Shown here one piece after another: positions 51 to 46,435 of a stretch of 64,000 nt of DNA; within the stretch, counting starts at the first letter, position 1; every line of letters begins with the position of its first letter. The notes beneath the pieces were generated by a model that worked only from the letters and a program-made list of their open reading frames with translations, was not told the DNA's origin and did no database searches. A program made the position numbers and the translations under genes. The stretch comes from Eledone cirrhosa. Taxonomy: Eukaryota. The stretch is taken from positions 281,852,001-281,916,000 of the forward strand of contig OZ024743.1 in NCBI GenBank assembly GCA_964016885.1, given 5' to 3'.

Positions 51-3000
51 TTAAGTTATAGGAGGCTGCACAACATAAACAAAACCCAGGCTAATTAGAC
101 TGTCTTTTTCGAACTCAACTGAGGTACGTTCATATCTTTTAGCTTCTGATAAAGCTAGGTGTGAAAATTGGATTGCCTTCTGAACACGTCCTGGTTTTCC
201 ATCTGATGTACACCCAAAGCTACATGCTGCAGCTTCTTTAAACCGCAACTCAGCACAACATAAAAGCTTCAGCCTACGTGATGATGGGCAGATTTCGAAT
301 TTATTAAGGCTGGTGAAACATGGAAAAGAGATACCAGCTGGTCTGAAAACACTGTACCCACAACAACTGGCAATAAAAAACTGAAAAAACTCTGAGAAAC
401 TAAATAAGAACAACCGGCCATTCCCTGCACATCATCATAGACTGAAATCAAGGTACAAATTGTTGTCCTTAAATGCACATAGGCTATGCAATAAGATATA
501 TCTTTTTGATTCCTACATCAAAAGTATCAACCCTGATTTCATTACAGTCATGGAAACATGGGCACATTCCTTACTCTGTGATGGGGTTTTCAGCATAACT
601 GGCTACAACTTGTTTCGTAAAGACCACATTAATCGTGGTGGTGTAATGGTCTACATTCGTTCAAACTTTTCAGCAATTCCTTGTGTTGATTTGAACCAAT
701 CGCAGCAAGAAGTATTTTTCTGCGATGTACGTATGACCATGTCAACACTGCTACTTGGAGTTGTTTACCGTCCCCCAAATTACCATCATTACACTCAACT
801 TTATGATATTCTCAGAGCTGCTGCCAGGAAAAGAGCCACTTATGTTTTTATTGCAGGGGACTTCAATCACCCTGAGATTGACTGGGAAACCTTTTGTTGG
901 CTGCAAAGTGCAAATGATTTCCTTGAGCTAGTGCTGAAAGTAGTCACCTCCCCAACAAGAGGTAACAACATTTTGGATCTACTCTTCACCACTACTCCTG
1001 AAATGGTCATTAGTGTTACTACTGAGAAACCTTTACGTGACTCTGATCACAACCATCTCCAAACTGCTCACTTTGACTGGAATAAAGCCGACTGGAACTG
1101 TTACTGCACCAAGCTGCAACGTCCAAACTGGCTTGAATTTTATGACTCTGGAGATGTCAACACTGTACTCCAGAACATCCTGAACTCAATATCGACAGCA
1201 TGTGCAGCAACGGTGCCACGTAAGCAGAAAAAACATCCCAAAAGTGAAATTTGGGAGACTGCAGCAGTTCGTCTTACCAGGAAAGAACATTGTAATGCTG
1301 AAAGTGAGTACAAATTGCATAAATCAGATATCTATAGGAAAAAAAGCGAAATAAATCATCCAACCATCTCAAGCAGGTGACAAAAATAGCAGTGCTTGAC
1401 AGTAAGGTGTTCTGGAAATATGTACACTCAAAGCAGAGGCCTCACTTTCCAGTTAGTCCTCTTTGCAATCCCCACACAAGCCAGATTACTGACGACCCCA
1501 AAGAATGCGCAGAACTCATTGCTGAATGCTATGCAGGCATTTTCACTGTTGAAAACCAAAATGTACTATCTCCACCACCTCTAAGATCAAATTCTATTAC
1601 AACTATGGAATTTACACCTGCAATGCTGCGACATCACCTTAAAAATAAACGCAACCATGCCTCTCCTGGTCTTGATGGTGTTACTCACCTGCTTCTTAAA
1701 TGTGGTGGGTACTTCCTTCTGCACCAGCTATCACTCTTCTTTCAATTCTGTCTGAACGGTGCTACTCCGGAGCAGTGGAAAACTGCCAGTGTCATTCCTC
1801 TGTTCAAAAAGGGTAACCGCACATCACCTGTGAAATATGTCCAGTCAGTCTTACTAGCTGCATTGCCAAACTGATGGAATCCTGTGTCAGAGAAATACTT
1901 TGGAACTTCTGTAACTCTCACAGTCTTATCTGGCCCTCACAATTTGGATTTATCCCTAACTCCAGCTGCTGTCATCAACTTATAGAGTTTCTTGAAGACA
2001 TCACCCGGATCACTAATGGTGGCTCATGGGTGGATGTTGTTTACCTTGACTTTGCTAAAGCTTTCAATTCTGTGCCACACAAAAGACTTATGGCAAAACT
2101 CTCTGCAATGGGTGTGTAGGGTGATCTTTTTAACTGGTTGAAGTCCTTCATTCTCAGTCGAAGAGAGGTAGTCATGGTTCTAGGATAGCATTCATCACCA
2201 TATGAGATGTCATCTGGTATACCACAGGGATCTGTTCTTGGTTCCCTTTTGTTTGTGGCATATATTAATGACATAGATGCCAACTTAAAGAATGCCACAG
2301 TACTGAAATATGCAGATGACATCAAGCTGTACCTTGAGATAAAAAGGACAGATCCTGAACACTATAGATCTTTCCTGCAATCAGACCTGGACACAATGCA
2401 ACAATGGATCATGGACTGGCAACTCAAGTTGGCTGTTGACAAGTGTACCACCATGCAAGTGTACCACCATGTACTCCCTTTACAACACTAATATCAAGAA
2501 GTCTTCTTGTGAACGTGACCTGGGCATTATTGTCAGCAGTGATTTGCGTTGGATGAAGCACATCTCTAAAATTGTCAAGAAGGCCGAGGGTGTCTTAGCA
2601 TCACTCAGCAAGACCTTTGTCAACCGCTCCAGCTATCTATTTAAGGCTGTACATAGCTATGGTGCGGCCACACTTAGAATGTGCATCACCAGTATGAAAC
2701 CCCAATCTTGCTCAGAACATTGACCTCCTGGAAACTGTTCAGAGACATGCAGCCAAGCGAATAGCCTCCATCAGGCATCTACCATACTCTCAACGCCTTG
2801 TTTCCCTGGGCATGGATACATTGAAACTCCGACGTCTGGCAACTGACTTGGTAAACACCCACAAGATTATTAACCATCTTGCCAACAACAACCCTGAGCA
2901 CCTTTTTGATTTCCATGTGTCTAACACATGTGGACAAGCATGGAACAAACTACCTGCATCAGTTGTTAGCTGTCGAGACACTGCATCCTTTAAAACCTCC

Positions 3001-3192
3001 ATGCTTCCTGAGATTCGCTAACACTGCACCTGATGTCCACCCTCCATACACACGCACACATGTATTTCCTGACTCATACTCTGTTCATTTTCCTGACATT
3101 TGAACATTATTCTATGTACTATACATGCACCTTTGATGAGTTGTAGTGCACCTGAGCACTGTACACAATAATTTCATTATTATTATTATTAT
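51..3192 (+). mobile_element. CR1-clade LINE, degenerate; 5' boundary uncertain; ends in (ATT)n tail
   Basis: Endonuclease and RT motifs at 460-3021, then a 3' UTR and the tail 'caataatttcattattattattatt' ending at ~3192. Confidence 0.85.
460..3021 (+). pseudogene. CR1-type ORF2 (AP endonuclease + reverse transcriptase), broken by frameshifts and stops
   Basis: Motifs across ORF fragments: METW, GVVYRPPN, AGDFNHPEIDW, PTRGNNILDLLFT, SPGLDG, QFGF, YLDFAKAF, GIPQGSVLG, KYADD, ERDLGIIVSSDL. Confidence 0.9.
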
Positions 3193-4335
3193 TCTGTCTA
3201 CACCCGCTACGCGGAGAGCTGGGCATGCCGTGGCTGATGATGCACAGACATGCGCTCAGGCTACGACATATCCACCTCTTCCTCGACAGTGATCAGGTGT
3301 AGTCGCCCTTTGCTAGACACATGTTTCCCCAGCTTGTCTCCTTGACGGAGCTGCAGTCCTGGGTCAAGCGAAGACCGAGAGGAAGTGCTTGATGACTGGA
3401 ATGTCTTACAGCCCTCGACCAGTCGGGCAATACGATCGCTGGAAGATCCACCTTGGCATTCTATAGAGTTCTCCAGAAGAGATTGGCTAGTTGGTTTTCG
3501 TTGATGCCTAGAGTCTCCCCAAGGACGTCGTCACTCTTTCCCTCCACTAAGGAGAACTTTCAGGCTGGGGCACATGGACAACTTCCAGATATCCCTGGCT
3601 TAGCAGTGCTACCGAGGAGCCTTGCCAGTTCGGGATAAACTCTACAGGCATGGAAATGTCATCAGCTGGGCCTGTCCAAGATGCGCGCAGGGCGATGAAA
3701 CCGTCCTGCATGCACATGTCCAGTGTCCGTGCATTGCTGACTTGTGGGTTTATACCGAACACCTGCTGTCACGTGTAGAACGGATCGGGCTATCAGCTGA
3801 ATCCATCATGAGAATTGCCCCATCGCCTTCCTTTAGCCGAGAAGAACAGACAGTTTTTATCTGCCTGGTGGCCATGGTAAAAGAGATCGTATGGTGGACA
3901 CGTCGGAAAGGGTTGAAGACAGGTACACTCCTCTTTGGTCACGCCCTCATTAACTTTTTCAGGTTTCACCTGAAAAGGAAAATCAGAGTGGCGAGGGAAG
4001 TGCTGCCTTCCAGCCTGTTTGTTGAAAGGTGGGTGAGAGAGGCAAGAATGGCCTGTGTGAATGGGCCTACCCTGAGCGTGTGCCTGTAGCATCATAGGAG
4101 GAAAACTGGAAGAGGGAATTTGCCCTAGCAGTCAGGGTAATCGTGGCTGTTCTTGTGGGCTTTCTCCATGAGCGACCCTCGGAGGTCTCCTCCCTATTGG
4201 GGAATTTTTTCATTGTTTCCTTTTTTGTCACATACTCTGTTTTTGTTTTTACATGCAGAAATGCCCATTTGTATTGTCCTGTGTTGTCCTTAATGTTATA
4301 CTTTGTGTAAACCCTTGTGGTTAATAAAGAAAGCC
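3193..4335 (+). mobile_element. 5'-truncated Tx1/L1-clade LINE (ORF2 C-terminus + 3' UTR)
   Basis: LGMPWLMM and the zf-RVT motif CPRCAQGDETVLHAHVQCP; 3' end 'aacccttgtggttaataaagaaagcc' then ATT repeats; starts directly after the CR1 (ATT)n tail. Confidence 0.9.
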
Positions 4336-4555
4336 TTATTATTATTATTGGTCTAAGCGGACGTATTTTGCTCGCTCACAGTAAGTCGCTTTATTTGCCT
4401 GTTTAAATTATTTGTTGTAAAATATTTCTTGTTGTGTAAGGGATATAAGCCCTTAGACTTTGCCCCGTGAAGGGAAAAGTATAATATTTGGGCCTTTTGG
4501 CCCAAATATTTGAACTTTTTTTTACATGTTAAAAAATTTACGAAGAAAAAAAAAC

Positions 4556-6546
4556 ATGGCTGAGCCACGCCCCCCCCCCCCCCCCGCGATATGTCGGCTG
4601 TCGTGCGACAACGACGTAGAAGTTGAGAGGAGCGCTACAGCGAAATTAACACACATTGATAACACAAACACCACCACAAACAAGGTAAACAAAGACACCA
4701 ATGATACCAATAAGAACACTAATTTTGAAAAAAATGACAGTAACAGCGACAACGAAAATACAGATAACAAAAAAAAAAATAACAAATACAACAATTATAT
4801 CGACACCACTAACATGAAAACAAATAGCGACAACATCAACAGCAACAATACCAACTGCACCGAGAACAACGGTGGCAACAAAGACAACAATGATAACAGC
4901 GACAGTGCTAACAACAACACCAACAAGAACAACGTCAACAACACCCCCAACGAAAACAATACCACTTTCGCTGCGGCAGCAGCAAAAAAGAGGCCATGCT
5001 TCAACATGGACCTCTCAAACAAAGATGAAAAGTTGGCCCAGGCATGGAAGCTCATCAAGCAAGAGCAAACTTGGGCCAACTTAACTGTCCCGGTAGAAGC
5101 TATTGAGGCAGTGGAGCACAAAACGGTGTATTATAGATGCATCTCAGCACAAACCAAAAGGGTAGCGTTAATCCCACAAGAAGATATCGAAGTCGCGCTG
5201 AGGTGCATCAGAGAAGACACCCAGTACATAGAGAGAGGCAGACAGTACGGCACCATTTCGGTGTTGTTCAAGTCAGAAGCCCTCGCGATGAAACACGCCA
5301 TGACTCCTTGCAAAACCAGCAAGGTCATAATGTACCCCTCCCACATGGGAAAAAGAACGGCCCGTCTCCGCATTCCCAGAATCCCACCAGGACTTGACAT
5401 GTGGTGGCTTCTGCGATGTGTGATTGTGGAGGGGACGGATACAGTCCCTATAGAAGTGACCAGAACGGCCAGAGAGGACTGGTCCGGAGTTGACCTGGAG
5501 ATCCTTCTCCAGATCAGGCCCGAGAATGTGAAGACAATCCCAGACCATATCCAACTTCAGAATGGGACTGTCATTCACATTATGACCGAAGGCAAAAGGC
5601 CGCAGTGTTTTGTTTGTGGGGAAAAAACCCATTTGCGAGCCTTCTGCCCTCAACTGCTGAAAGAGGCAAGAGGTCGAAAGGCTCCACTGCTGCCGACGCC
5701 GGGGCGAGGACCACAACCAACACCTGCACCGGCAAAACCACCAACAACAACACCAATAGAAAAGACACCACCAACATTGACAACCCAGGGGGGAAACGAG
5801 GAAAGCTGTCAACCCCCCCCCCCCCAAAAAAAAATACACACACACCAATAAAACCTTAAACATACATACAAACACACTTACAGACACAGACCGCTCATCT
5901 ACCAGTAGTGAAGATGAGGGAAATCCCAAATCCCCCAAAATACAAAAAAGGAAACAAAAAGAAAATAAAAAAACTCAACAAAGCACAAAAGCACCCACAA
6001 TAAAAAAACGCAGACACCACCCACGCAAACATCTCTCCAATAACACCAACATCAACACCACCATCACCATCACCAGAATCCCCCACACGCAAACAACCGA
6101 AACAGACGGAAGAACAAATATACACACAAACATCTGAAACCACAGACATCGCACTCACAACAAACACAGATACAACCGAAACAACACCACCAAAACCATC
6201 ACCACCACATCCACGCAAACAAATAAAATCACACCAACAAAACATACAAAACTTCGTGCTCGTCAGGAGGGCCAACAAGGAACTGATGGCCCTCGTAGCA
6301 CGAAGTGAAAATATACAAAAAGAGGGGGAAATGTTTAAATCGAGCACATTTCGCGTGCCGGAAGATTAGGTTCTGGTGCGAATGTCGCTCGACATATTCA
6401 AAGAAATACGAGACAGCTTTCCTCGGGACGTGGGAAACCCGAACGTAAAACCCACTTCAAGACTTTTAAAGGGGTTCCCAAAAGAAACCCCACTAACTAT
6501 GGAGGTCGAACAACTCGACCTTCACAAGAGCCCGGAAGGTAAGTAA
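4556..6546 (+). pseudogene. Tx1 ORF1 (Asn/Thr-rich N-terminus, putative RRM-like region, CCHC zinc knuckle, Pro/Thr-rich tail), frameshifted near the C-run at ~5815
   Basis: CFVCGEKTHLRAFC fits CX2CX4HX4C; a downstream frame continues to ...HKSPEGK* at 6546. Confidence 0.8.
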
Positions 6547-6577
6547 ACCTTCCTCTCTCTCTGTTTAACCTGCCAAC

Positions 6578-9500
6578 ATGGCCGTATTAAGAGTAGGATG
6601 TTTAAATGTTCGAGGCCTGGGATCGTCCTGGAAGCAGGGTCACCTGCTCAACGACCTCAGGTTTATAGAAATGGATGTAATTGCAGTCAGCGAGACCAGG
6701 ATTTCCGACACGCGCGCACTAGCCCCCATTTTCGACGACTATCAGATCTTTGCATCTGTTAGCCATCCGGGAATGGGAGGCGGGGTGGAAGTGCTGTTTA
6801 GGAAAGGCCTGGATCTCGAGGTAAGGTAGATGTTCCGGGACCCGGACGGGAAGTTGGTGGTCCTGGACGTGAACAATAATGAAGGTGGTGCCTTTAGACT
6901 GGTGGCCGTCTATGCTCCTACTGGGGCAGGAGGGCCGGACTTCTTTAGACGCCTGGAAGCCTTTCTGGGTACGTCTCGCCCTTTACTGTTAGCGGGGGAC
7001 TGGAACGGCATCTTAGACGCACGCTGGGACTGTGTGGGAGTATCCGATAGGAGCGGGGGGTGCAAAAGCCTCAAGAACCTGATCAGCCAGTTCCAACTGT
7101 CTGACAGGTACCGACTAGATTTCCCTAATGCGCCAGTGTGGACCTGGGCTAACCGCATAGGGTCATCTAGATCGTATATAGACAGGATATTCATTAGGAA
7201 AATAGACAGAAATAGTGTAAGCTGTCCACGTTTTGAAACGGTCGCCTATTCAGATCACAAGTTTGTGATCTGTATGGTCGACCTAGATAAGACGCGTAGG
7301 TTAGGACCTGGTTACTGGAAGCTAAACATGTCATTTCCGGCACGTAAGGCTTACAGGGACCAGGTCAACAATTTAGTTAAGAAAAAGTTGACAGGGGGAG
7401 TCGTCAACAATAGATGGTGGGGGGCTCTCAAAAGAGAGATTAGAGTAATGTCGATAGAGTTTAGCAAAGAAGTAGCATTAGAGAAAAATAGAAAGGAGGG
7501 AGAGTTGGTAGATAAGTTAGACGAGGCTATTCGTAGTGGCATTGCAACTGATGTGCTAGCGGCGAGAATGGCATTAGACCATTTCTTCAATGCGAAACAC
7601 GAAGGTTGCATTGTCAGAGCTAAGGCGCGTGCTCTGAGAAACAAGGGAACCAAAGCTGTTCGATGGGCCCGCGTGGTAGAGGCGCAGCTTGGTAATAAAA
7701 CCACGATTCGGTCTTTGACGGACCGAGACGGGCTCGAGCTGAGCGATTCCAAGAGGATGTGTGAGGCCTTTCGCCAGCATTTTGCTCGGTTGTTCGGGGG
7801 AAGTGGCGGGTCAGAGATGGTGGGCCACTTCAGTCCCTACCTCGATGGCTTGCCGCAACTCTCGACGGCTGACGCTGGGCGCTGCGAAAGGCCAATTACT
7901 TCAGCCGAGATTCAGGATGCCCTTGTAGGCTGCATGAGGCGCAAGTCACTCGGTTTTGATGGTCTGCCCTACGAGCTTTACGTAAATATGCCAGACTTGT
8001 TCTCCAATCTCCTCGAAGCGCTCTACTGCAACTGGCAGCAAAACGGGAGTATTCCCAGTTCTGTGAGCCGGGGCGTAGTGACGCTGATAAGGAAAGACGA
8101 GAACAAGAGGGACACATTAGATAATTTCAGGCCCATAACACTGCTCAACACAGAGTTTAATATTTTGGCCAGGGTGTTAGCGAAGAGGTTGGCGCTTGTC
8201 GTCGGGGATTTGGTTGGTGAGGCGCAAACTTGCGCAATCTCAACCAGGTCCATACACGACAACCTCCACCTAATGCGATACATCATAGAGAGGGTAGGGT
8301 GTAAACCTGGCTTCGGTGGGGCTCTGATCAATTTAGATCAATCGAAAGCATTCGATAGGGTCGACTATCGGTACCTGGAGGCTGTCCTCAAGGTGGCTGG
8401 CTTCGGCCCCGTCTTCAGAAGCTGGATCGCTGCAATGCACAGCGGCACCTGCTCGATGGTCAAAATTAATGGCCACCTCTCGGAACCGTTTCAGGTCTCC
8501 CGATCGGTCCGTCAAGGGTGCCCTCTCTCCTCCTTTCTGTACGTATTGACTCTCGAGCCTTTACTGCGGAAGCTGGAGCTGTTGCAGGCATCCCGCTCGA
8601 ACCAGGACGCGGAAAGGCTGTGTCGGCTTATGCGGACGACATCACCGTGATGGTGTTGGACACCTCAGAAATCGAGGTGGTCGGCAACTTATTGGAGGAA
8701 TATGAAAGGTTGACGGGAGCAAAACTTAACCCGGAAAAGTCAGTGGGCTTGCAGCTCGGCACCTGGAGAGGCAAGTCCATGCCGTCCAACAGCGTCGTTA
8801 GGATGAGGACGGACGGACCGCTAAAGTTGCTAGGGGTTTGGTTCGGGCCAGACCTCCAGGTGGATAAGAATTGGGACGAGGTGACGGGCAGGGTAGTCAG
8901 TCTCACCCAGAAATGGGCTGGGATGAAGCTATCACTGAAAGGTCGTCCGTCATCTACTACCGTCTGACTGTCGTCGCTTGCCCCGTTCGCGCCTCGCCAT
9001 CTTGGAGCGGCTCCTCTTCAAATTCTTGTGGAGGGCTCAGGTTCCGCTGGTGAGGCGGTCCATCTGCTGCCAGCACCCTCTACGTGGAGGGCTGGGCATG
9101 CTGTGGCTAATGATGCGCAGGCACGCGCTGAGGCTGCGGCATCTCCAGATATTCTGCCTAAACGGTGAACAGGTGTGATCGCCGTTTGTCAGACGGGCCT
9201 TTCCGCAGCTCGTTTCTTTGACTGAGTTGCAGTCCTGGGTCCAGAAGAGACCGAAACTGGGTGACTGGCATCTGGAATGTTGTCAGGCACTCACTGCCCT
9301 CTACCAGGCGGGAAATGCGGTCAGTGGAACTTCCACTCTCGAGTTCTATAGAGGATTAGTGGTGGGCAAGTGCGACGTCGCACTCGGAGAGGCTCTGGGA
9401 GTCAACGAAGTCGAACTAACCAGTCTGTACCGGAGGACTTTCGAGCCGGGGACGATGGATAATTTCCAAAAATCCCTCGCTTGGCAGTGCTACCGGGGGG

Positions 9501-9970
9501 CACTACCGGTTCGAGATAAACTCTACAGGAACGGAAGTGCTGTCAGACGGACCTGCCCGAGATGCGCGCAGAGCGACGAAACCGTTCTGCATGCACTCGT
9601 CCAGTGTCCGTGCATTCCTGACTTGTGGAGTTATGCTGAACAGCTGTTGTCGCGTGTAGAACGGATCCGGCTATCGGCCGAGTCCATAGTGAAGATCGAC
9701 TCGCCGCCTTCTTTTGGCCAGGAAGGGCAGGCAATTTTCCTCTGTCTGGTGGCAGTAGCGAAAGAGGTTGTATGGTGGACGAGGTTGAAAGGACTGAAGA
9801 CAGACACTTTTCTCTTCGGCCAATCCCTCATCAACTTTTTCAAGTTTCACTTGGAAAGGAAGGTGAGGGTGGAGAGAGAAGTGCTGCCCCCCAGTACATT
9901 TGCTGAAAGGTGGGCGAATGTGGCGAGAATGGCCCGTGTGAGTGGGCCTACTCTGGTCATGCGGCTGTAG
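6578..9970 (+). pseudogene. Tx1 ORF2 (EN + RT + zf-RVT) with a few stops and frameshifts
   Basis: CLNVRGL, AVSET, AVYAP, AGDWN, SDH, GPGYWKLN, NFRPITLLN, LDQSKAFDRV, VRQGCPLS, AYADD, CPRC..H..C. Confidence 0.93.
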
Positions 9971-10266
9971 GTAGGTAAATTTGAAGAGGAGAGGGGTGCC
10001 CTTCCAAGGTTCTCTCGAAGCGTCGGGTCGTTCAGGACTGGTGGGGTACCTGAGCGAACCCTAGGTGGTCATCCCCCCTATTGGGGAATGTTTTCTTGTT
10101 GTAATTTTCTTGTTACTTTATTGTTACTTTGTTATTGTTACTTTGTTTATTCATATTGTTTACTCGATTTTTCTGTAAAACCCCACTGTCCCAGTCTTTT
10201 GTATTGTCCCCTATATGTCGGCCCTTGTGGCCAATAAATGAAATCATTATTATTATTATTATTATT

Positions 10267-12351
10267 CGTACATGCCAGACTTGTTCGGCGACCTCTTGGC
10301 AGATGTCTACTGCAACTGGCAGCAGAACGGGAGCATTCCCAGTTTTGTGAGCCGGGGAGCGGTGGCGCTTCTGAGAAAAGACCTGAACAAAGGGGACATT
10401 ATAGACAACTTCAGGCCCATAACTCTGCTAAACACAGAGTTCAAGATTTTGGCCAAGGTGTTAGCAAAGAGATTGGCGTTTGTCGTCGGTAATTTGGTGG
10501 GAGATGCGCAGACATGCGCCATTCCAGACAGATCCATCCACAACAACCTCCTTCTAAATGAGATACATCATAGAGAGGGTGGTTAAAGAACCTGGCACGG
10601 GTGGGGCTCTGATCAACTTGGATCAATCTAAAGTATTTGATAGAGTCAACCATCGGTACCTGGCTGCGGTCCTCGAGGTGGCCGGCTTTGGGCCCATTTT
10701 TAGAGGCTGAATTGCTGCAATGCACAGCGACATCTGCACGATTGTGAGGGTGAATGGTCACCTGTCGCATCATGTGATCAATGGTCACCGTTCAGCATCA
10801 TGCGCTCAGTCCGCCAGGGTTGTCCCCTCTCGTCCCTCTTGTACGTACTGGCTCTCGAGCCATTACTGCACAAATTGGAGACCATGAGGGGGGTACCTCG
10901 CGAACTGGGATGCAGAAGATCCGTGTTGGCTTACGCTGACGACGTCACCATGGTGGTGTCGAGCACCAAACATGTCCAGATGCTCGGCCCTGTTCTCAAG
11001 GAATACGAAGCGGTGACAGGAGCAAAGATAAACCAGAAAAAGTCGGTAGGCTTGCAACTCGGCACCTGGAGAGGCAAGTCCATGCCGCCTGACAGCGTCG
11101 TGGGGCGCTGGACGGACGGGCCGGTTAAATTGCTTGGGGTCTGGTTCGGTCCGGACCTCCAGATGGAGAAAAACTGGAGCGAGGTGACGAGAAGAGTGGC
11201 TTCTCTCACCCAGAAATGGGCTGAGAGGAGGCTGTCTCTGAAAGGTTGGGCGGAGGTGGCGAATGCGTACATCGCGTCTGTCATCTGTTACCGCTTAACC
11301 GTCGTACCTTGCCCCCATCCAACTCTGACCAAAATGGAGTACCTTCTCTTCCGCTTTTTGTGGAAGGGACATGGTCAAACGATCCATCTGCTGTCAGCAC
11401 CTGTTGCATGGAGGACTGGGCATGCCATGGCTAATGATGCCTAAACATGCGCTGAGGCTGCGACCTCTCTGGTGCTTCCTTGACGGTGAACAGGTATGGT
11501 CGCCGTTTGCCAGACTCGCTTTTCCCAAGCTCGTCTCCTTGACGGAGCTGCAGTCCTGGATCAGAAAAAGACCGAGGGATAGCACTTGGAAGCTAGAATG
11601 TCTCCAGGCGTTCACTGCCCTCTACCAGCTGGGCACTGACATTGGTGGAACATCCACCTTGGCATTCTATAGAGGGCTAGTGGAGGGGAAGAGCGACGAC
11701 GTTCTTGGGGAGACCCTGGGCGTCGAAGACGATCAGCTGTTTGCTCTCTTCAAGAGAACTTTCAGCCCCGGACCTATGGACAATTTCCAGAAATCCCTGG
11801 CCTGGCAGTGCTACTGGGGAGCGTTGCTGGTTCGGGATAAGCTCTACAGACACGGGGTGCCATCAGCCGAGCCTGTCTGAGAGGCGCGCAGGACGACGAA
11901 ACCGTCCTGCACGCACTCGTTCAGTGCCCGAGAATTCCTGACTTGTGGAGCTATGTCGAACAGCTGCTGTCGCGTGTAGGACGGATCCAGTTATCGACTG
12001 AGTCCATTGTGCAAATAGCCCCACCATCCTCCTTTAAAGAGTAGGAAGGACAAGCAATCTTCATCTGCCTGGTGGCCATGACGAAAGAGATTGTGTGGTG
12101 GACAAGTTTCACTTGTAGCGGAAAATCAGGGTGGAAAGGCAAGTGCTGTCTTCTAGTAAGTTTGTTGAAAGGTGGGTGAAAGTGGCGAATCTGATCCGAG
12201 TGAACTCTGAGTATGCACCTGTAGACTGAGGAGTGGGAAAACTGAGAGAGGGCACTTGCCCTGGTGGTCAGGGTGGCCGTGGTCTTTTGTGTGGTTTTCG
12301 CCATGAGTGACCCTCGGAAGCTCCCTCCTTATTGGGGAATTTTTGTTATTT
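10267..12351 (+). mobile_element. 5'-truncated Tx1 LINE (third variant); 3' UTR cut off at the junction with the R4-like fragment
   Basis: RT motifs NFRPITLLN, RQGCPLS, AYADD; begins right after (ATT)n at 10246-10266; 3' UTR 'cctattggggaa'-type motif near 12326-12340. Confidence 0.88.
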
Positions 12352-12707
12352 GAATTTTGTGTTTCAGGAAGATTGAGATCACAGGTGAGATTTTGAAGAT
12401 GTCCAGTGATTTCAGAATCAGAATGTGGTATGCTGTCAAAGGCTTTTTTATAATCAATCCATGCAGAACTGAGATCTGTGTTTATTATGACAGTTCTCAA
12501 GGATCATATGATTAATCAAAAGTTGATCTTTCCAACCATATGAACCTCGTCGGCACCCTTTTTGTTCACCTCCAAAAACACGTATGGTTTTTCCATGAGA
12601 ATAGAGGTTAATAGTTTATAAGTTGTGAACAAGCAGGTTATCGGGCGATAGTTTTTTGGATCTTTGGTTTCGTTGTTCTTTGATAGAAGGTAGGTAATGC
12701 CTCTTGT
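12352..12707 (-). mobile_element. R4/Dong-like non-LTR RT fragment
   Basis: Minus-strand translation gives GITYLLSKNNETKDPKNYRPITCL, RRGSYGWKDQLLIN and AWIDYKKAFDSIPH; 5' side abuts (TAA)n. Confidence 0.75.
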
Positions 12708-12727
12708 TGTTATTATTATTATTATTA

Positions 12728-13884
12728 TCTGCTGTCAAAACCCACTACGTGGGGGGATGGGCAAGCCATGGCTGATGATGCACAGACACGTGCTCAGGCT
12801 ACGACATCTCCACCTCTTCCTCGACGGTGATCAGGTGTGGTCGACATTTGCTAGACGCGTCTTTCCCCAGCTCATCACCTTGATGGAGCTGCAGTCCTGG
12901 GTCAAGCGAAGACCGAGGGGGAGCGCTTGGAGACTGGAATGACTTCAGGTGCTCACAGTCCTCGACCAGTCAGGCAATATAATCAATAGAAACTCCACCT
13001 TGGCGTTCTATAGAGGATTAGTGGAGAGGAAAAGCGACGACGTACTTGGGGAAACTCTAGGCGTCGACGAAAATCAACTAGTCAATCTTTTCGGAAGAAC
13101 TTTCGAGCCGGGGCCTATGGACAATTTCCAGAAATCCCTGGCCTGGCAGTGCTACCGAGGAGCTTTGCCAGTTCGGGATAAACTCTACAGGCATAGAAGT
13201 GCTGTCAGCCGGGCAGGTCCGAGATGCGCGCAGGGCGACGAAACCGTCCTGCATGCACTTGTCCAGTGTCCGAGATTTGCTGACTTGTGGGTTTATGTCG
13301 AACACCTGCTGTCGCGTGTAGAACGGATTCGGCTATCAGCTGAGTCCATCGTGAAGATTGCCCTGCTCTCTTCCTTTAGCCGGAAAGGACAGGCAGTTTT
13401 ATCTGTCTGGTGGCCATGCGAAAGAGATAGTATGGTGGACGCGTCTGAAAGGGCGGAAGACAAGCACTTGCCTCTTCGGTGATGCCCTGATTAACTTTTT
13501 AAAATTTCATTTGAAAAGGAAAATCAGGGTAAAGAGGCAAGTGCTCTCTTCCCAGCATTTTGTTGAAAGATGGGTGAGAGAGGCAAGAATGGCCCGAGTG
13601 AATGGGCCTACTCTGAGTATATTCCTGTAAATTGAAGGTGGAAAACTGGGAGAGGGCACTTGCCCTGGTGGTCAGGGTCACCGTGGCTTTTTTAATGGGC
13701 TTTCTCCACGATGGCCCTCGGAAGTCTCCCCCCTATTGGGGAATTTTTCAATGTTCTTTTTTGTTACATCCTCTGTTTTTTTGGTTTTTTTTACACGCAG
13801 AAATGCCCATTTGTACCGTCCTGTATTGTCCTGTACTGTCCTTAATGTCTACTTTGTGTAAACCCTTGTGGTTAATAAAGAAAG
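12728..13884 (+). mobile_element. 5'-truncated Tx1 LINE, subfamily A
   Basis: CCQNPLRGGMG through the zf-RVT region; 3' end 'aacccttgtggttaataaagaaag'; starts in an ATT tract. Confidence 0.9.
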
Positions 13885-14071
13885 GGCGGTGGATTGGCAG
13901 TATCGGTAGAGGGTCTGACGCCATGCTTTGCAGCAAAGAGTTACGGCCCTTTATGGTCTGAGTTCAAATCCCGCCGAGGTTAACTTTGCTTTTCATCCTT
14001 ACGGGGTCGATAAAATAAAATACCAGTAATACACTGGGATAATTGCTGGCCTTGTGCCAAAGGTAGAAACA

Positions 14072-14073
<2 letters not shown>
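13884..14073 (+). mobile_element. tRNA-headed SINE (family S1) with (ATT)n tail
   Basis: A-box-like TGGCAGTATCGG, B-box GAGTTCAAATCC, central 'tttcatccttacggggtcgataaaataaa', 3' 'tggccttgtgccaaaggtagaaacaattatt'; ~15 copies in the window. Confidence 0.9.
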
Positions 14074-14125
<52 letters not shown>

Positions 14126-17100
14126 GGCGACCTGCGTAGGAAATCGTATTATCGTGAGCTCAGCAAAGGTTTGTTGTTTTCAGATGTTTCAAATTGCCAG
14201 TTATGGAAAATTTTTGTTGTTAAGTGTTTATAAGTTCACATATATTGCTTTCTGAAAAGTACACAAAAAAATATTGGGGCCTTGAGCCCAAAACTTAAAC
14301 TTTTTATTTATCAAACAAAATATTTCTTTGAATAAAAAACATGGACAACAAATTTATTGTTTTAACAGACCCCCTCCCCCCACACACACCACCACCACCA
14401 CCACCAACACCAACACCATTGTAAGACTTGCTACGGTTGCCGACACTGAAAATATAATTAATAGCAGTTTGAATTATTTAGATTTGCCGCATAAAGACAT
14501 GGATTTCCCGCCATTACCAATAACTGCAGGTGTTAAAGCCGCCACCCCCACCACCACAATGTCAAAAAGAACAACGAACACCACTGATACCACCACCACC
14601 ACCACAGCGACAACAGAAACCCCCAAAAATTAATTATTATCTCGTGACATCGAAATGGATTCACCCAGAATCGACTCTTCCACACCGAACACCACTGACA
14701 TCACCACCACCTCCACCACAACTGAAACTAAAAATAACAATAACAACAACAGCAACAACAACAATGAGAATAACAACAACAACATCAACACCACCGCAAA
14801 ACAAAATGTGTCATTTGCCAAAGCAGCCAAGAAAAGCGAAACAATCGAGGTAAGCCAGGATGAATTAAATGAAGCCAAGCGAATGGTAAAAAAAGATGGG
14901 TACAGGGTCAGCCTTACCCCCCACCCCCACACACCTTATAGAATGGACCATCGGCGCCTATGCACCGTGTCATATCGGACGATAAACACAAAATCACACC
15001 GAGTGGAACGGGCATCCGAGTCCCCAAAACAAAAATCTTTGGGACATGTGTGGGCGAAAAAAACCCACATCAGACGTGGGCAGAAATATGGAACTGTGGA
15101 CGTGTTCTTTGGAACACCACAGGAAGCCAGAGAGCACTCAATGGCCCCATTAAGAAGTGACGACTTCACACTCGTCCCAAGCTATTGTGGTCAGAGAGAG
15201 ACTCGTGAAGATCAGGGTGACCCACGTTCCACCGGCCATCGAAATTCCCTGGCTAATGGCTGCCGTCCTTGCCGGCATCGAGGCCAACACGAAAATAATT
15301 GAAGTAACAAAAGAAAAGCAGGAGAACTGGTCCGGATCTGGGATGGAGCTTCTGCGGACCAAAAAAACATTGAGGAAATTCCAGAGGTGATAGACCTCAC
15401 TGACGGCAGCCACCTCACCATAATCGTTGAGGGTAGAAGGCCTAGGTGTGTCGTTTGTGGTGAAGGAAAAGCTTTCTGCCCTCAGGCTAAAAAGTTGAGG
15501 ACACCTCTCTTACCCACCTCAGTGACTCAACCATCAACACCACCAGCAGCAGAAATGGCAGCAACAACTGTAGCAGCAACAACAGAAGCAACTGTAGTAG
15601 CAACAACCCCAGCAACAATAGCAAAACCAACACCACCACCAACCACCGCGCCAGAACTATCACCAGCGCCTCCACCATCCACCACGCCACAACCAAAACC
15701 AACGCCTGTGGAGGATTTTCCACTCCCCAACCTATCGCAACTGGAGACAGATTGTGACGACGAGGAGTGGGAAACGGTATTAGGAAAAAAGAAAAAAAGA
15801 AAAAGAAGCCAAAAAGGAAAAAATATCTTCTTCCTTCCCCCTTCAAAAACAAAATACAGGGGGAAACAAATAAACTAACAAACAAAAAAGTTAGGACAGC
15901 TATGCCACCATCCACACCAGTATCACTAACCCCATCACCACAAACACCAACCCCATCACCACAAACACCAACCCCATCACCATCATTAATCCCAACACCA
16001 TCATCACCAACACCACAAAAGTCACCAAAAAGCGAAACGGAAACAAACCCACAACAAACGCAAACAAAACAAAACAACCAAAACGATACACACTACACAG
16101 CATTACATTTGAACAACTAACTATTACACTACATCCAACACAACACCAGCATCACAGAAAAAGACTACACAACAACCCAAAAGTTCACACCACCTCCACA
16201 CATACAAATCACTCGCATCACACAGAAAACGTACGCGACACTAAAACAAAAATTCCCCAAAGACATCGGAGACTTCCGACAAACACTCTCCGGAGGAGGC
16301 CACAAGCAGTGAGAAGGATGGAAAAACCATCCTCCCCCTACGAAAAGTGAAGTAAGTGGTCTTTCCCATCTTTTTCCACTCCTTTTCAACATGACCTCAC
16401 TCAGAATGGGCAGCATAAATGCACGTGGCCTGGGGTCGTCATGGAAGCAGAGCCACCTGCTCAACGACCTCAGGTCACTAAACATAGATATGGTGGCTAT
16501 CAGCGAGATCTGAATCTCTGATGCATGGGCCTTTGCACCGATCTTCGGTGGCTACAATGTGTACGCATCTCCCAGCCGTCCTGGATCGGGGTAAGGAGTT
16601 GCTGTGCTTTTTCGGAGAGGTATGGATCTCGCCATACGGGCCATCTTCCTGGACCCAGAAGGTAAGTTGGTGGTGATGGACGTGACCAGCGGAGACGGGC
16701 AAGCTTTCAGGCTAGTGGCCGTCTATACCCCGACAGGAGCAAGGCGGCCTGATTTCTTCTGGCGTCTGGAGACCTTTCTTGGAACGTCCCGCTCTTTAGT
16801 GTTAGTGGGCGAACTGGATCTTAGATGCACGCTGGGACTGTGTGGAATTAGCAGATAGGGGAGGAGGGTGCAAGAGCCTCACCAATTTGCTCAGGCGTTT
16901 TGAACTGTCTGACAGGTACCGATTGGATTTCCCGAATGTGCCAATGTGGACTTGGACAAACCGCGTCGGGTCATCCAGATCATATCTAGATAGAGTATTT
17001 TGTAGGGAAATAGATAGGTCTAGCATAGGCTGTCCACAATTCAAGATAGTCAGCTACACGGACCACAAATTCGTGATCTGAGTGGTTGACTTAGATAGGC

Positions 17101-19923
17101 TTCATAGACAAGGATCCGGCTACTCGAGCTAAACGCGACCTTACCAGCACGCAAGGCCTACAGAGACCGGATTAGCGAACTAGTTAAGCGGGCATTGACG
17201 GGGGCCATCGTCAACAACATGTGGTGGTTTGCTCTGAAAAGAGCAATTAGAATAGAGTCCATTAGGTTTAGTAAGGCTTTAGCAATAGAGAAAAATAGAG
17301 CAGAGGGAGAATTAGTTAGAAAATTAGACGAGGCGCTTAGCAAAGGCATCGCGACCGACGTACTTGCGGCGAAATTGGCCTTTGACCAATTCTTCAATGC
17401 AAAGCACGAATGCAGCGTTGTCAGGGTTAGGGTGCGTGCTCTCAGACGCGAGGGGACGAAAGCGGTTCAATGGGCCCGAGTGGCGGAGGCGCGTCGTGGC
17501 AACAAAGCCATGATCCGGTCTTTGGTGGACCACGACGGGCGCATGCTACTCGATCCCGGGCAAATGTGTAAAGCTTTTCAGCAACACTTCGCTCAGCTGT
17601 TCGGGGGCAGCGGCGGGCCGGATCGAGGGATGGCCTTTAGTGTCTACCTCGACGGACTGCCGTGGCTCTCGGCCACTGAGGCGGAGTGTTGCGAAAAGCC
17701 GATAACAGCCGCTGAAGTACGGGAGGCAATGACTGGCTGCACAAGGGGTAAATCGCCTGGTTTGGATGGTCTGCCCTATGAACTTTACGTACAGATGCCA
17801 GACTTGTTTGGAGGCCTCTTGGCGGACATCTACTGCAACTGGCAACAGAACGGGAGAATTCCCAGTTCTGTGAGCCGAGGAGCAGTGGCGCTGCTGAGAA
17901 AGGATCCGAACAAGGGGGATAACATAGATAATTTCAGGCCCATAACTCTGCTAAACACAGAGTTCAAGATTTTGGCCAAGGTGCTAGCAAAGAGGTTGGC
18001 ACTTGCTGTTGGTGACATGTGCCATTCCCGACAGATCCATCCACGACAACCTCCACCTCATGCGATACATTCTGGAGAGGGTAGCTAGGGAACCTGGCAT
18101 TGGTGGGTCCTTGATCAATTTAAATCAGTCGAAAGCTTTCGATAGGGTCGACCATCGTTACCTAGCGGCAGTCCTGAGGGCGGCTGGCTTTGGGCCCATC
18201 TTCAGAGGCTGGATCGCTGCCATGCACAGTGACATCTGTTCTGTGGTGAGAGTGAACGGTCACTTTTCGGAACCGTTCAACATCATGCGCTCGGTCCACC
18301 AAGGATGTCCCCTCTCGTCCCTCTTGTAGTGGTGTCGAACGCCAAACATATCGAGGCGATCGGCATTACACTAAGAGAATACAAAGCGATGACAGGAGCA
18401 ATGATGAACCAGGAAAAGTCAGTGGGCCTGCAGCTCGGCACCTGGAGAGGCAGGTCCATGCCATCCAAAAGCGTCGTCAGGCGCTGCACGGACGGTCCGG
18501 TTAAATTGCTAGGGGTATGGTTCAGTCTGGACCTCCAGACGGACAAAAACTGGGACGAGGTGATGAGCAGGGTGGCTTCTCTCATCTAGAAATGGGCGGA
18601 GAGGAAGCTATCCCTGAAAGGTCAAGTGGAGGTGGCTAACGCGTACATCGCGTCCATCATCTACTACCGCTTGACCGACGTACCTTGTCCTAAGCCCCGC
18701 CTCACTGCGCTGGAGCGTTTGCTCTTTCGCATTTTGTGGAAGGGACGCGCTCCGATGGTCAGGCGGTCCATCTGCTGTCAACACCCGCTACGTGGAGGCC
18801 TGGGCATGCCATGGCTGATGATGCGCAGACACACGCTCAGGCTACGACATCTCCACCTCTTCCTCGACGGTGATCAGGTGTGGTCGACATTTGCTAGACG
18901 CATCTTTCCCCAGCATGTCTCCTTGGCGGAGCTGCAGTCCTTGGTCAAGCAAAGACTGAGAGGGAGCGCTTGGAGACTGGAATGTTTTCAGGCGCTCACA
19001 GCCCTTGACCAATCGGACAATGTGATCGGTGGAAACTCCACCTTGGCGTTCTATAGAGGATTAGTGGAGGGGAAAAGCGACGACGTACTTACGGAAACTC
19101 AAAGCGTCGACGAAAATCAACGAGCCAATCTCTTCAGAAGAACTTTCGGGCCGGGCCTACGGACAATTTCCAGAAATCCCTGGCCTGGCAGTGCTACCGA
19201 GGAGCTTTGCCAGTTCGGGATAAACTCTACAGGCATGGAGGTGCCATCAGCCAGGCATGTCCGAGATGCGCGCAGGGCGACGAAACCGTCCTGCACGCAC
19301 TCGTTCAGTGTCCGAGAATTGCTGACTTGTGGGTTTATGTCGAACACCTGCAGTCGCGTGTAGGACGGATCCGGCTATCAGCTGAGTCCATCGTGAGGAT
19401 TGCGCCGCCCTCTTCCTTTAGCTGGGAAGGACAGGCAGTTTTTATCTGTCTGGTGGCCATGGCGAAAGAGATAGTATGGTGGACACATTTGAAAGGGCTG
19501 AAGATGAGCACTTACCTCTTCGGTGATGCCCTGATTAACTTTTTAAAATTTCATTTGAAAAGGAAAATCAGGGTAGAAAGGGAAGTGCTCTCTTCCCAGC
19601 ATTTTGTTGAAAGATGGGTGAGAGAAGCAAGAATGGCCCGAGTGAATGGGCCTACTCTGAGTATGTGTCTGTAAATTAAAGGTGAAAAACTGGGAGAGGG
19701 CACTTGCCCTGGTGGTTAGGGTCACTGTGGCCTTTTAATGGGCTTTCTCCACAAATGTCCCTCCAAGTCTCCCCCCTATTGGGGAATTTTTCATTGTTAT
19801 TTTTTATTACATCCTCTGTTTTTGTTTTTTTACACGCAGAAATGCCCATTTGTACCGTCCTGTATTGTCCTGTACTGTCTTTAATGTCTACTTTATGTAA
19901 ACCCTTGTGGTTAATAAAGAAAG
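14126..19923 (+). mobile_element. Near full-length Tx1 LINE, subfamily A, copy 1 (ORF1 ~14341-16355, ORF2 16391-19674, both disrupted)
   Basis: ORF1 knuckle remnant RPRCVVCGEG..; ORF2 EN/RT/zf motifs; an internal deletion near 18327 removes the YADD segment; flanked by ATT. Confidence 0.92.
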
Positions 19924-29784: not shown

Positions 29785-30225
29785 ATGGTCATGTACGCCA
29801 AAAGTTCCCAGCCCACACTGTAAAGTGGTCATGTAGGTGTCACAACAAAAAGCACTCAGTCCACACTGTAAAGTGGTTATGTAGGTGTTATGACAAAAAA
29901 CACCCAGTCTACACAGTAAAGTGATTATGTAGGTGTCACAACAAATAGCACCCAGTTCACACTGTAAGGTGGTCATGCTGGTCATATGACAAAAAGCACC
30001 CAGTCCACACTGTAAAGTGATTGAGTTGGGGACATGACAAAATGCACCCAGTACTCATTGTAAATAAGGTTGTCATTAGGAAGGACATCCAGCTATAGAA
30101 ACCAAGCCCAAATCAGTTCTGTATGAGCAAGACATGGTCACCTGACCTAGCATTGCCCACAACAGGACAACTTGTTTAACCCATGCTAGCATTGAAAAAT
30201 GGACATAAAACCGGTGATGATGATA
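29785..30225 (+). repeat. RTE-type 3' UTR with ~5 tandem ~47-bp units, ending in (GAT)n
   Basis: Unit 'cacccagtccacactgtaaagtggtcatgtaggtgtcacaacaaaaag' repeated; the same 3' UTR follows RTE ORF ends at 34310-34686 and 63570-63945. Confidence 0.75.
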
Positions 30226-40334: not shown

Positions 40335-40680
40335 ATTTGAAAAAGGAAAATCAGGGTAGAGAGGGAAGTGCTTTCTTCACAGCATTTTGTTGAAAGATGG
40401 GTGAGAGAGGCTAGAATGGCCCAAGTGAATGAGCCTACTCTGAGTATATGCCTGTAAACTGAAGGTGGAAAACTGGGAGAGGGCACTTTCCCTGGTGGTC
40501 AGGGTCACCGTGGATTTTTTTAATGGGCTTTCTCCATTTGGGAAATTTTTCATTGTTCTTTTTGTTACATCCTCTGTTTTTTTTTTTTACACGCAGAAAT
40601 GCCCATTTGTACCGTCCTGTATTGTCCTGTACTGTCCTTAATGTCTACTTTGTGTAAACCCTTGTGGTTAATAAAGAATG

Positions 40681-40681
<1 letters not shown>
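40335..40681 (+). mobile_element. Short 3' fragment of Tx1 subfamily A
   Basis: LKRKIRVEREVLSSQHFVERW plus 3' UTR; lies between two (ATT)n tracts. Confidence 0.9.
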
Positions 40682-40735
<54 letters not shown>

Positions 40736-43700
40736 GGCGACCTACGTAGTAAATCGTATCATCGTAAGCTCCGCAAAGGTTTGTTATTTTCAGTTGTTTA
40801 AAATTGCCATTCATGGAAAATTTTTATTGTTAACTGTATATAAGTGCACATACATTGTTATCTGAAAAGGACACCCAAAAAGATTGGGGTATTGAGCCCA
40901 AAATTTAAACTTTTATAATTATCAAACAAAACTTTTTCTTTGAAAAATCATGGATGACAAAGTGTCACTCCTTCCTCACAAACTAACACCTCACACTGAC
41001 ACCACCATTGTAAATATTACTACGTTTGCTAACACTAAAAATATAAGCAGTAGCAATATTTTAAATTTGTCTCAGGCAGACATTCATTTCCCGCCATTAC
41101 CAATGACTGCAGGTGTTAAAGCCGCCACCACCACCACCACCGCGACAACCCCCACCCCTACCACCACCGCGACAACAGAAACAAAAGAAAAAAATAAATT
41201 AACTCGTGATGTCGAAATGAATTCAACCAAAATGAACTCTTCCACACCGAACACCACTGACGCCACCACCACCACAACTGAAACTAAAATTAATAATAAC
41301 AAAAATGACGATAACAACAACAGCAACAATGACATTAAGAAAACCACCCTGAGTTTTGCCAGAGTAGCAAAAGAGTGCGAAGCATTTCAGGTAACTCAGG
41401 AGGAATTAGAAGAAGCCTAAAAAATGGTAAAGAAAGATGGGTACATGGTCAGCCTCACCCCCCACCTAATAAAATGGAGCATCGGCGCCTATGCACCGTG
41501 TCTTATCGAACAATTAATATAAATTCGCGCCGAGTGGAACGGGCATCCGAGTCCCAAATCCAAAAAGCTTTGCGACATGTGTGGGCAAAAAAAACCCATA
41601 TCAGACGTGGGCAAAAATATGGAACCGTGGACGTGTTCTTTGAAACACCACAGGAGGCTAGAGAACACTCCATGGCCCCATTAAGAAGTGACGACTTCAC
41701 ACTCGTCCCAAGCTATTGTGGCCAGAGACTCGTAAAGATCAGGGTGACCCACGTTCCACCGGCCATCGAAATTCCCTGCCTAATAGCTGCCGTCCTCGCC
41801 GGCATCGAAGCCAACACCAAGATAATAGCAATAGCGAAAGAAAAGCAGGAGAACTGGTCCGGATCAGGGATGGAGCTCCTGATCCAAGCGGACCGAAAAA
41901 GCATTGAGGAGATCCCAGAGGTAATAGACCTCACTGACGGCAGCCACCTCACCGTAATTGTCGAGGGCAGAAGGCCTAGCTGTGTCGTTTGTGGTGAAGG
42001 AACCCACCTAAGGGCTTTCTGCCCTCAGGCTAAAAGGTTGAGGCCACTTCTCCTACCCACCCCAGTGACTCAACCATCAACACCACCAGCAGCAGAGATG
42101 GCAGCAACAACTGTAGCAGCAACAACAGAAGCAACTGTAACAGCAACAACCCCAGCAAAAGTAGCAAAACCAACACCACCACCACCCAACGCGTCAGAAC
42201 TAGCACTAGCGCCTACACCATCCACCATGCCACAACCAAAACCAACGCCTGTGGAGGATTTTCCACTCCCCGGCCTATCACAACTGGAGACAGATTGTGA
42301 CGGCGAGGAGTGGGAAACGGTATCAGGAAAAAAGAAAAAAGAAACCAAAAAAGAAAAAATTCTCTTCCCTCCCCCTCCAAAAACAAAATACAGAGGGAAA
42401 CAAATAAACTATCAAACAAAAAAGTTAGGACAGATATGCCACCATCCACACCAGCATCACCAACCCCATCACCACAAACACCAACACCATCACCATCATT
42501 AACCCCAACACCATCATCACCAACACCACAAAAGTCACCAAAAAGCGAAACAGAAACAAACCCACAACAAACGCAAACAAAACAAAACAACCAAAACGAT
42601 ACACACTACACAGCATTACATTTGAACAACTAACTATTACACTACATCCAACACAACACCAGCATCACAGAAAAAGACTACACAACAACCCAAAAGTTCA
42701 CACCACCTCCACACATACAAATCACTCGCATCACACAGAAAACGTACACGACACTAAAACAAAAGTTCCCCTAAGACATTGGAGACTTCCGACAAACACT
42801 CTCCAGGAGGATTTATAAGGACATCCTTCCGGAGGAGGCCACAAGCAGTGAAAAGGATGGACAAACCGTCCTTCCTCTACGAGAAGTAAGGTAAGTGGTC
42901 TTTCCCATCTTTTCCACTCCATTTCAACATGACCTCACTTAGAATAGGCAGCATAAATGCGCGTGGCTTGGGGTCGTCATGGAAGCAGGGCCACCTGCTC
43001 AACGACCTCAGGTCACTAAACATAGATGTAGTGGCCATCAGCGAGACCAAAATCTCCGAAGCACGGGCCTTCGCACCGATCTTCGGCGGCTACGATGTGT
43101 ACGCATCTCCCAGCTGTCCGGGATCGGGGTAAGGAGTTGCTGTGCTTTTTCGGAGAGGTTTGGTTCTTGCCATACGAGCCATCTTCCTGGACCCAGAAGG
43201 TAAGTTGGTGGTGCTAGACGTGACCAGCGGAGATGGGCAAGCTTTCAGGCTAGTGGCCGTCTATGACCCGACAGGATCAGGGCGGCCTGATTTCTTCCGG
43301 CGTCTGGAGACCTTTCTTGGAACGTCCCGCTCTTTAGTGTTAGTGGGCGACTGGAACGGAATCTTAGATGCACGCTGGGACTGTGTGGAATTAGCAGATA
43401 GGGGAGGAGGGTGCAAGAGCCTCACCAACCTGCTCAGGCGTTTTGAACTGTCTGACAGGTACCGATTGGATTTCCCGAATGTGCCAATGTGGACTTGGAC
43501 AAATCGCATAGGGTCATCCAGATCATATCTAGATAGAGTATTTTGTAGGGAAATAGATAGGTCTAAAGACCGGATTAGCGAACTAGCTAAGCGGGCATTG
43601 ACGGGGGCCATCGTCAACAACATGTGGTGGTTTGCTCTGAAAAGAGCAATTAGAATAGAGTCCATTAGGTTTAGTAATGCTTTAGCAATAGAGAAAAATA

Positions 43701-46404: not shown

Positions 46405-46435
46405 ATTATTATTATTATTATTATCATTATTATTA

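Follow-up and report, generated by a model that had tools for sequence, protein, structure and literature searches.

A 64,000-nucleotide stretch of the Eledone cirrhosa genome (assembly GCA_964016885.1, contig OZ024743.1, positions 281,852,001 to 281,916,000 of the forward strand; hereafter, the window) contains long interspersed elements (LINEs) of the Tx1 type and a short interspersed element (SINE), S1, which end in a common 3′ module. In several Tx1-type families and in S1, this module consists, in order, of a stem-loop, an A-rich spacer, a four-base purine motif, and a tail repeat. It is well supported that S1 and Tx1 are a real SINE–LINE pair, of a known kind and in an unexpected clade, because two independent lines of evidence point to it: a 3′-end similarity specific to Tx1, and an insertion footprint that S1 shares with Tx1 and that a CR1 LINE of the same genome lacks. 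Tx1 very probably mobilises S1. An earlier note on this DNA had proposed that the Tx1 elements are of the "stringent" type and mobilise S1 through the hairpin. The mobilisation is upheld by the tail similarity, which is to Tx1 and not to the CR1, RTE, or R4 ends found in this genome, and by the footprint; recognition of S1 by the Tx1 ORF2 protein through the hairpin is plausible and, judged from sequence comparison, somewhat probable, which is a weaker statement than that of the note.

The 3′ module of Tx1-type LINEs and S1

The last 30 nt of S1 (short form) scored 18–30 against the ends of seven Tx1 families, while the scores against the CR1, RTE, and R4 ends were 1, 8, and 6, respectively. 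Among the 2,010 genomic ends that formed the null distribution (mean, 4.6; standard deviation, 4.8), 21 reached 18 and 5 reached 24. CR1, RTE, and R4 were rejected as partners of S1, as the ends found do not match. The R4-type family L036 was also rejected as an ATT-ending partner: its motif is internal, not terminal. The LINE ends surveyed came from 500 kb of random sequence (regions chosen arbitrarily) and from targeted loci, a sample in which no end of a second CR1 or of a second RTE family was seen. Within the 500 kb, 79 high-scoring S1-like ends were found: 47 behind a SINE body, 8 behind Tx1, 8 that by their look were truncated or decayed SINE tails, and 16 that were weak. The earlier note had named another LINE matching S1 better as a counter-observation; such a LINE was sought, and no further LINE family stood behind the 79 ends of this sample. 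A family with A-U or U-A as the second stem pair was considered and dropped, as 100 listed matches of 892 looked like scattered, mutated SINE or Tx1 copies.

The hairpins that the note had reported were present at all seven sites (Table 1), each with the same 5-nt loop and a 4-bp stem. We aligned the tails of 20 copies, taking two copies per group from ten groups. The three inner pairs are formed in 20/20 copies each, and RNAalifold predicts these three pairs. Columns without variation include those of the closing pair, of the four-base purine motif, and of four loop bases out of five. The pairing probability is 0.79–1.0 in all nine Tx1 and SINE consensus tails. The compensatory covariation claimed earlier comes down to two double changes that are independent of each other. 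At pair 3, type A has A-U where the others have G-C; at pair 2, the SINE has G-C where all Tx1 have C-G. The covariation score exceeded those of all 500 shuffles, although the tool warns that kinship inflates this score. The near-constant distance to the ATT tail also held (16–17 nt past the loop), except that an ATT tail is missing from the copy with the hairpin at 13861, whose purine motif is followed at once by the SINE. Furthermore, ATT is only partly a tail of the element; it is partly the target site, as the duplications start at ATT.

Besides types A and B, we found type C and ATCT-tailed types, whose ORF2 C-termini are 57–72% identical to that of type B. The module is kept among these families, whose upstream 3′ untranslated regions (UTRs) are poorly alignable, and it persists through a switch of both tail and target to ATCT. 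In every Tx1 family, the hairpin lies directly before the poly(A)-signal hexamer. S1 has no such hexamer, yet the loop and the purine motif are kept. A second conserved hairpin-like block, C-rich/G-rich, was noticed about 140 nt upstream of all aligned Tx1 3′ ends (e.g., 13728-13743 and 10073-10087).

The partners and their insertion footprint

The Tx1-type elements carry two open reading frames (ORFs), and ORF2 has a C-terminal zinc-binding domain, as expected of Tx1 and the L1 superfamily. In a near-complete ORF2 (1150 aa), Pfam matches were found to an APE endonuclease (PF03372), a reverse transcriptase (RT; PF00078), and zf-RVT (PF13966). The nearest solved structure is human L1 ORF2p (E 1e-56; R2 reaches only 1e-21). 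Among named proteins, the closest relative comes from Argonauta hians, with 69% identity across the RT region. An RT tree places the elements in a single clade, split from the CR1, RTE, and R4 elements of the genome (support 97/96); the row labelled R4a_L037 in this tree is actually a Tx1 RT. The label "Tx1" is well supported by these sequence comparisons, rather than proven against a named reference, as the tree contains no named Tx1 or L1 sequence. Tx1 ORF1 proteins are expected to bear an RNA recognition motif and CCHC knuckles. The ORF1 here gave a weak zf-CCHC_4 match (E 0.07-0.17), and its atlas neighbours at 0.91 include CCHC clusters.

In this 3.0-Gb genome, ends were counted genome-wide by exact end patterns, with reversed patterns as the control. 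The counts were 7,158 for type A, 3,427 for type B, and 5,711 for the ATCT-tailed type D, and 0 for the reversed controls, which puts the motif far above chance expectation; these tail types are those found in the searches made. The genomic Tx1 copies terminate in a microsatellite, not in poly(A). The ATCT motif was found beside 11 of the 20 bounded type-D copies, and ATT in the 5′ flank of most bounded type A/B copies (see below): the Tx1-type elements are target-specific, with a preference for repeated sequences. Two observations touch on this. An abundant Tx1 lineage (L221-L250) has the same 3′ module with an ATCT target and tail replacing ATT, i.e., a target switch. In addition, type-A ends occur about 6 kb apart at G000:C1:55423673-55435811 and 56169677-56181802, a spacing that likely reflects head-to-tail arrays in which full-length elements have inserted into one another's tails.

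S1 occurs in forms of about 190 and 220 nt. It is short, non-coding, and dispersed, and has a simple-repeat tail and variable target-site duplications, as SINEs do. Box-like RNA polymerase III elements are seen in its head (Table 1); ARAGORN reported 0 tRNA genes there, and Rfam gave no tRNA match. S1 is presumably similar to the octopus SINEs OR2 and "tRNA-Core/Deu". The random regions contain 33 S1 copies with an intact 3′ end, from which a genome total of roughly 200,000 copies is extrapolated; this abundance rests on the 500-kb sample. S1 with an ATCT tail is nearly absent (5 matches genome-wide), which fits a need for tail–target pairing or for loop specificity. A 48-bp tandem array that consists of the SINE 3′ end and its duplicated target was also observed (L075-L080; G000:C6:31611253-31617840).

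We examined the insertion footprint in 171 S1 copies, 34 Tx1 copies, and 18 clean CR1 copies. The Tx1 set was obtained from 120 loci, of which 93 passed a check of the junction, 46 had a 5′ boundary, and 34 had a flank outside other Tx1. Non-repetitive duplications of at least 9 bp were found in 62 of the 171 S1 copies (median, 14 bp), 55 of which begin exactly at the 3′ junction; the shuffled control gave a mean of 4.5 and a maximum of 9. Purely repetitive duplications were found in another 18 of the 171. In the random regions alone, 15 of the 33 S1 copies have non-repetitive duplications, 9–19 bp in size. Among the Tx1 copies, 6 non-repetitive and 10 repetitive duplications were seen, while CR1 provided none (0/18). 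The duplications of L1-clade elements are given as 7–18 bp with a peak at 13–15 in the accessible text of PMC6007223 (after Ichiyanagi and Okada 2008). The target motif is present in the 5′ flank of 118/171 S1, 24/34 type A/B Tx1, and 2/18 CR1 copies, against a background of 5.4%. Tx1 differs from CR1 (p=8e-5), as does S1 of the random regions (p=0.002), while S1 and Tx1 do not differ from each other (p=1.0).

The mean identity to the consensus is 93.9% for S1, 96.5–96.8% for Tx1, and 98.4% for CR1; the LINE samples are skewed towards young copies, as they were picked by exact match. The ranges overlap: the 10th to 90th percentiles are 90.0–96.7% for S1 and 91.1–97.6% for type A. S1 and Tx1 thus share an insertion footprint and an overlapping time of activity. 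The CR1 family (window 385-3172; L161-L220) is very young, with many open 945-aa frames and without target-site duplications.

Recognition of S1 and the competing explanations

Following the established scheme of target-primed reverse transcription, the Tx1 ORF2 protein would bind the shared 3′ module in the S1 RNA and copy S1 into the genome: an ATT motif would be nicked by the endonuclease, the DNA end thus released would pair with the repeat tail of the RNA, and a second nick about 14 bp away would give rise to the target-site duplication. The hairpin and the purine motif would act as the recognition signal, by analogy to the 3′ stem-loop of the L2 clade. The module of S1 was likely captured from a Tx1 RNA and then lost its poly(A) hexamer, for which a polymerase III transcript would have no need. 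Recognition through the hairpin is favoured because the hairpin and the purine motif stay fixed while the UTR, spacer, and target change, because S1 shed the hexamer and retained these two parts, and because CR1 RNA, with the same repeat tail, shows no Tx1-type footprint.

Several observations weigh against this view. The compensatory events number only two, which is too few, and one of them can be read as a paired deletion: the SINE stem may be the type-B stem minus one C-G pair. The 4-bp stem of the earlier note does not extend across the families, as the fourth pair is broken in 10 of the 20 copies; the loop, identical at the window sites, varies in ATCT-tailed families (the second base in type D, the third in another). 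Shuffled sequences fold about as stably as the tails do (z 0 to -1), and a different fold is obtained for one SINE copy of the window. In a two-by-two genome count of SINE double mutants (compensated, 428 and 152; uncompensated, 277 and 196), the compensated combinations were not in significant excess (odds ratio 1.20, 95% confidence interval 0.92–1.55); the counts match neutral decay after insertion and add no support. The shared stretch is about 27 nt at about 55–67% identity, while the bivalve LINE/SINE pairs described in the available text of PMC11481361 share longer ones, 35–61 bp at 72–95%. As for the footprint, the clean Tx1 duplications are just 3 (13, 14, and 17 bp), the 2 of type B are within the shuffle range (maximum, 3), and location in a long array is commoner for Tx1 than for S1 (p=0.003). 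Moreover, S1 copies are on average older than the Tx1 copies, which were sampled with a bias to young ones.

Many of these points suit the possibility that Tx1 moves S1 by relaxed recognition, where the annealing of tail and target is decisive and the hairpin is a relic of an old capture. The weak stem, the few compensatory events, and the non-significant odds ratio would all be expected then, and the near absence of ATCT-tailed S1 indicates that the match of tail and target matters. A Tx1–SINE pair lacking a common 3′ sequence is also on record in the portion of PMC4494074 available (SINEU/Tx1-Mar), and distant metagenome relatives whose end is visible (L286, L295, L296, and L323; 21 of the 80 metagenome loci were inspected by eye) have A-rich ends without the hairpin. 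Nevertheless, a relic would not readily account for a constant loop, closing pair, and purine motif next to a diverging spacer and upstream UTR, nor for CR1 RNA having the same tail and no Tx1 footprint, although cis-preference could explain the latter too. We therefore regard relaxed recognition as rather unlikely, and retain the hairpin as the candidate signal. The relatives mentioned are only 25–44% identical to the elements here; because of their A-rich ends, the hairpin motif looks lineage-restricted as far as seen.

The ATT tail alone is not decisive for the partner of S1, because the young CR1 family likewise has an ATT-repeat end. This family is abundant (2,420 exact ends), and its own 3′ hairpin has two inner stem pairs of the same polarity as in S1. 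If S1 were moved by this CR1, or by a LINE beyond the end survey such as the second CR1 or RTE family, its likeness to Tx1 would reflect shared tail ancestry. This is improbable: the CR1 tail score is at chance, CR1 shows neither duplications nor a target preference, and its copies are younger than most S1 copies. As for an unsampled LINE, we read by eye 110 nt of flank in 30 of the 58 genome matches that have the SINE stem behind a foreign upstream sequence, and these were truncated or deleted SINEs or one SINE-tail tandem array. Least probable, in our view, is that the hairpin serves 3′-end processing of the RNA or translational control of the Tx1 message. Its position immediately before the hexamer and the related hairpin ahead of ORF1 would agree with such a role, whereas its retention along with the purine motif in the hexamer-less S1, and the microsatellite ends of genomic Tx1, would not.

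The related hairpin was found in the 5′ UTR of full-length Tx1 (4486-4507, 14277-14289; L014, L088, L263, L146, and L277), where it precedes the start of ORF1 by 35–55 nt in all types of 5′ end observed. A second hairpin often lies just upstream of it. In L014, L088, and L263, the 5′ loop is identical to the 3′ loop and the stem polarity is that of the SINE. Here, 26 of 36 positions align with the SINE end (p 0.02 and 0.007 for the two SINE forms by 300 shuffles, uncorrected for five UTR types), and the tail score of 26 is near those of the best 3′ ends (27–30). Other Tx1 subfamilies have different 5′ loops, and the remaining UTR is unrelated to the SINE. The 5′ UTR as a decayed SINE was rejected, as no similarity extends beyond the hairpin, and no ribozyme or other Rfam family was found in it. 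The 5′ hairpin may bind protein as a second site, may have given rise to the SINE tail, or may show a chance likeness on a conserved stem. Capture from the 5′ copy is considered because the polarity of the S1 stem equals that of the 5′ hairpin. One speculative extension, which we hold only tentatively, is that the Tx1 lineage reads a miniature hairpin that its RNA bears twice, ahead of ORF1 and ahead of the tail, that this signal stays fixed through target switches, and that the SINE mimics it, perhaps from the 5′ copy.

Known systems and other features of the window

According to the available part of PMC4176376, ZfL2-1, ZfL2-2, and eel UnaL2 likewise have a 3′ stem-loop before a short-repeat tail, their SINEs share this tail, and in their case, too, the stem is exchangeable and the loop conserved. 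These LINEs belong to another clade, their stem-loop is longer, and its binding by ORF2p was demonstrated by assay, whereas the 3-bp stem here is deduced from alignments. An L1-clade 3′ end is also shared with SINEs in maize and sorghum (LINE1-1_ZM with ZmSINE2/3) and in Chlamydomonas (L1-1_CR with SINEX-3), as described in the accessible portions of PMC3472496 and PMC3747384. In the monocot LINE1-1_ZM, the hairpin shows compensatory changes, and both its loop and a 3′-flanking motif are conserved; this, too, was deduced from sequences. However, these are plant and algal L1 elements, not Tx1; they share about 50–80 nt with their SINEs, and microsatellite targeting is not mentioned in the portions concerned. 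The review text seen (PMC3747384) counts 58 pairs, of which just 3 have an L1-tailed SINE; all 3 come from plants or algae, and the review calls for assays.

For Tx1 itself, the crocodilian SINEU/Tx1-Mar is the closest case (PMC4494074, in the part available): mobilisation by Tx1 was likewise concluded from a common target preference. According to that part, SINEU combines snRNA heads with poly(A) tails, and its 3′ end is not significantly similar to that of any LINE; its target is a Mariner transposon. The same source describes Kibi and Koshi, APE-type Tx1 on (TC)n and (TTC)n microsatellites; the elements here are on ATT and ATCT. It also describes Keno, another APE-type Tx1. In our data, U2-inserted Keno-like metagenome loci (L295 and L298) join the elements at 80/96 in the RT tree, on a neighbouring branch, and the Keno-like copies with a visible end have an A-rich one without the hairpin; L295, L298, and L286 adjoin U2 snRNA sequence. 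The remark of the earlier note that SINEs with a Tx1-type tail are rarely described agrees with our literature search, in which SINEU/Tx1-Mar was the sole Tx1–SINE pair found, one without a shared 3′ sequence. No Tx1 or animal L1-clade LINE sharing a 3′ hairpin with a SINE, and no Tx1 3′-UTR assay, was found in this search, to which Repbase, Dfam, subscription papers, and supplements were external. The accessible parts of PMC13282606, PMC3531059, and PMC3787270 contain no such pair, and the available text of PMC11481361 gives CR1, CR1-Zenon, L2, and Nimb, and no Tx1, as partners of bivalve SINEs.

The octopus tRNA-derived SINEs OR2 and "tRNA-Core/Deu" are, like S1, very abundant; S1 may be of tRNA type as they are. 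No partner LINE is given for them in the available parts of PMC4758252, PMC5804259, and PMC8967140. Tx1 is a likely motor for a SINE expansion of the type that fills a large part of octopus genomes. The present system bears on how L1-type RTs shift between structure-based ("stringent") and poly(A)-based ("relaxed") choice of RNA. It is directly testable, because the lineage offers near-intact ORF2 copies, a candidate signal of 13 nt with natural variants of both stem and loop, a partner SINE, and two repeats as targets.

The window itself is composed of nested LINEs and SINEs joined at ATT arrays (Table 1). The nesting occurs in both orders: a SINE entered a Tx1 end at 13885, and a Tx1 follows the SINE array at 14126.

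Table 1. Elements and motifs located in the window
Feature	Position	Strand	Remarks
CR1-type LINE with ATT tail	385..3172	+	different 3′ hairpin; rival partner
Type-A Tx1, 5′-truncated	3194..4335	+	starts in the CR1 ATT tail; hairpin 4310-4322
Full-length Tx1-type LINE, type B	4350..10247	+	5′ end approximate
Strong 5′-UTR hairpin, type B	4486..4507	+	about 50 nt before the ORF1 start; z -6.5 for 4475-4525
ORF1, type B	about 4514-5848	+	within the LINE at 4350..10247
ORF2, type B, with APE endonuclease, RT, zf-RVT	within 4350..10247	+	broken into pieces
3′ hairpin, type B	10220..10232	+	followed by poly(A)-signal hexamer, purine motif, ATT repeats
Tx1-type fragment	10266..12350	+	starts in the type-B tail; no 3′ end of its own
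Type-A Tx1, 5′-truncated	12725..13884	+	starts in an ATT array; 3′ hairpin 13861-13873
SINE S1, full-length short form, 187 nt	13885..14071	+	inserted at the type-A Tx1 3′ end
A-box-like polymerase III element, SINE head	13895..13906	+	by eye, against a consensus
B-box-like polymerase III element, SINE head	13960..13971	+	by eye, against a consensus
SINE 3′ hairpin	14047..14059	+	three conserved pairs and a variable fourth
Four-base purine motif	14066..14069	+	10-11 nt after the loop; common to the SINE and all aligned Tx1 ends
(ATT)18 tail and target array	14072..14125	+	from the SINE to the next Tx1
Full-length type-A Tx1	14126..19915	+	starts directly after the ATT array of the SINE; 3′ hairpin 19900-19912
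5′-UTR hairpin, type A	14277..14289	+	SINE-like stem polarity; loop one base off the 3′ loop
Two type-A Tx1	40335..46400	+	head to tail across an ATT array; hairpins 40657-40669, 46380-46392
Truncated SINE	46434-46598	+	after the type-A pair

Apart from these elements, R4-type RT fragments lie on the minus strand at about 12404-12734 (L037 and L036). In the L037 family the end is the complementary repeat, TAA; in the L036 family, the 3′ region is repeated in tandem. Tandem repeats were also observed at 54462-54804 (114-bp unit) and at 29800-30064 (48-bp unit); repeats similar to the 48-bp unit occur in the 3′ UTR of the RTE family found in L042 and L048.

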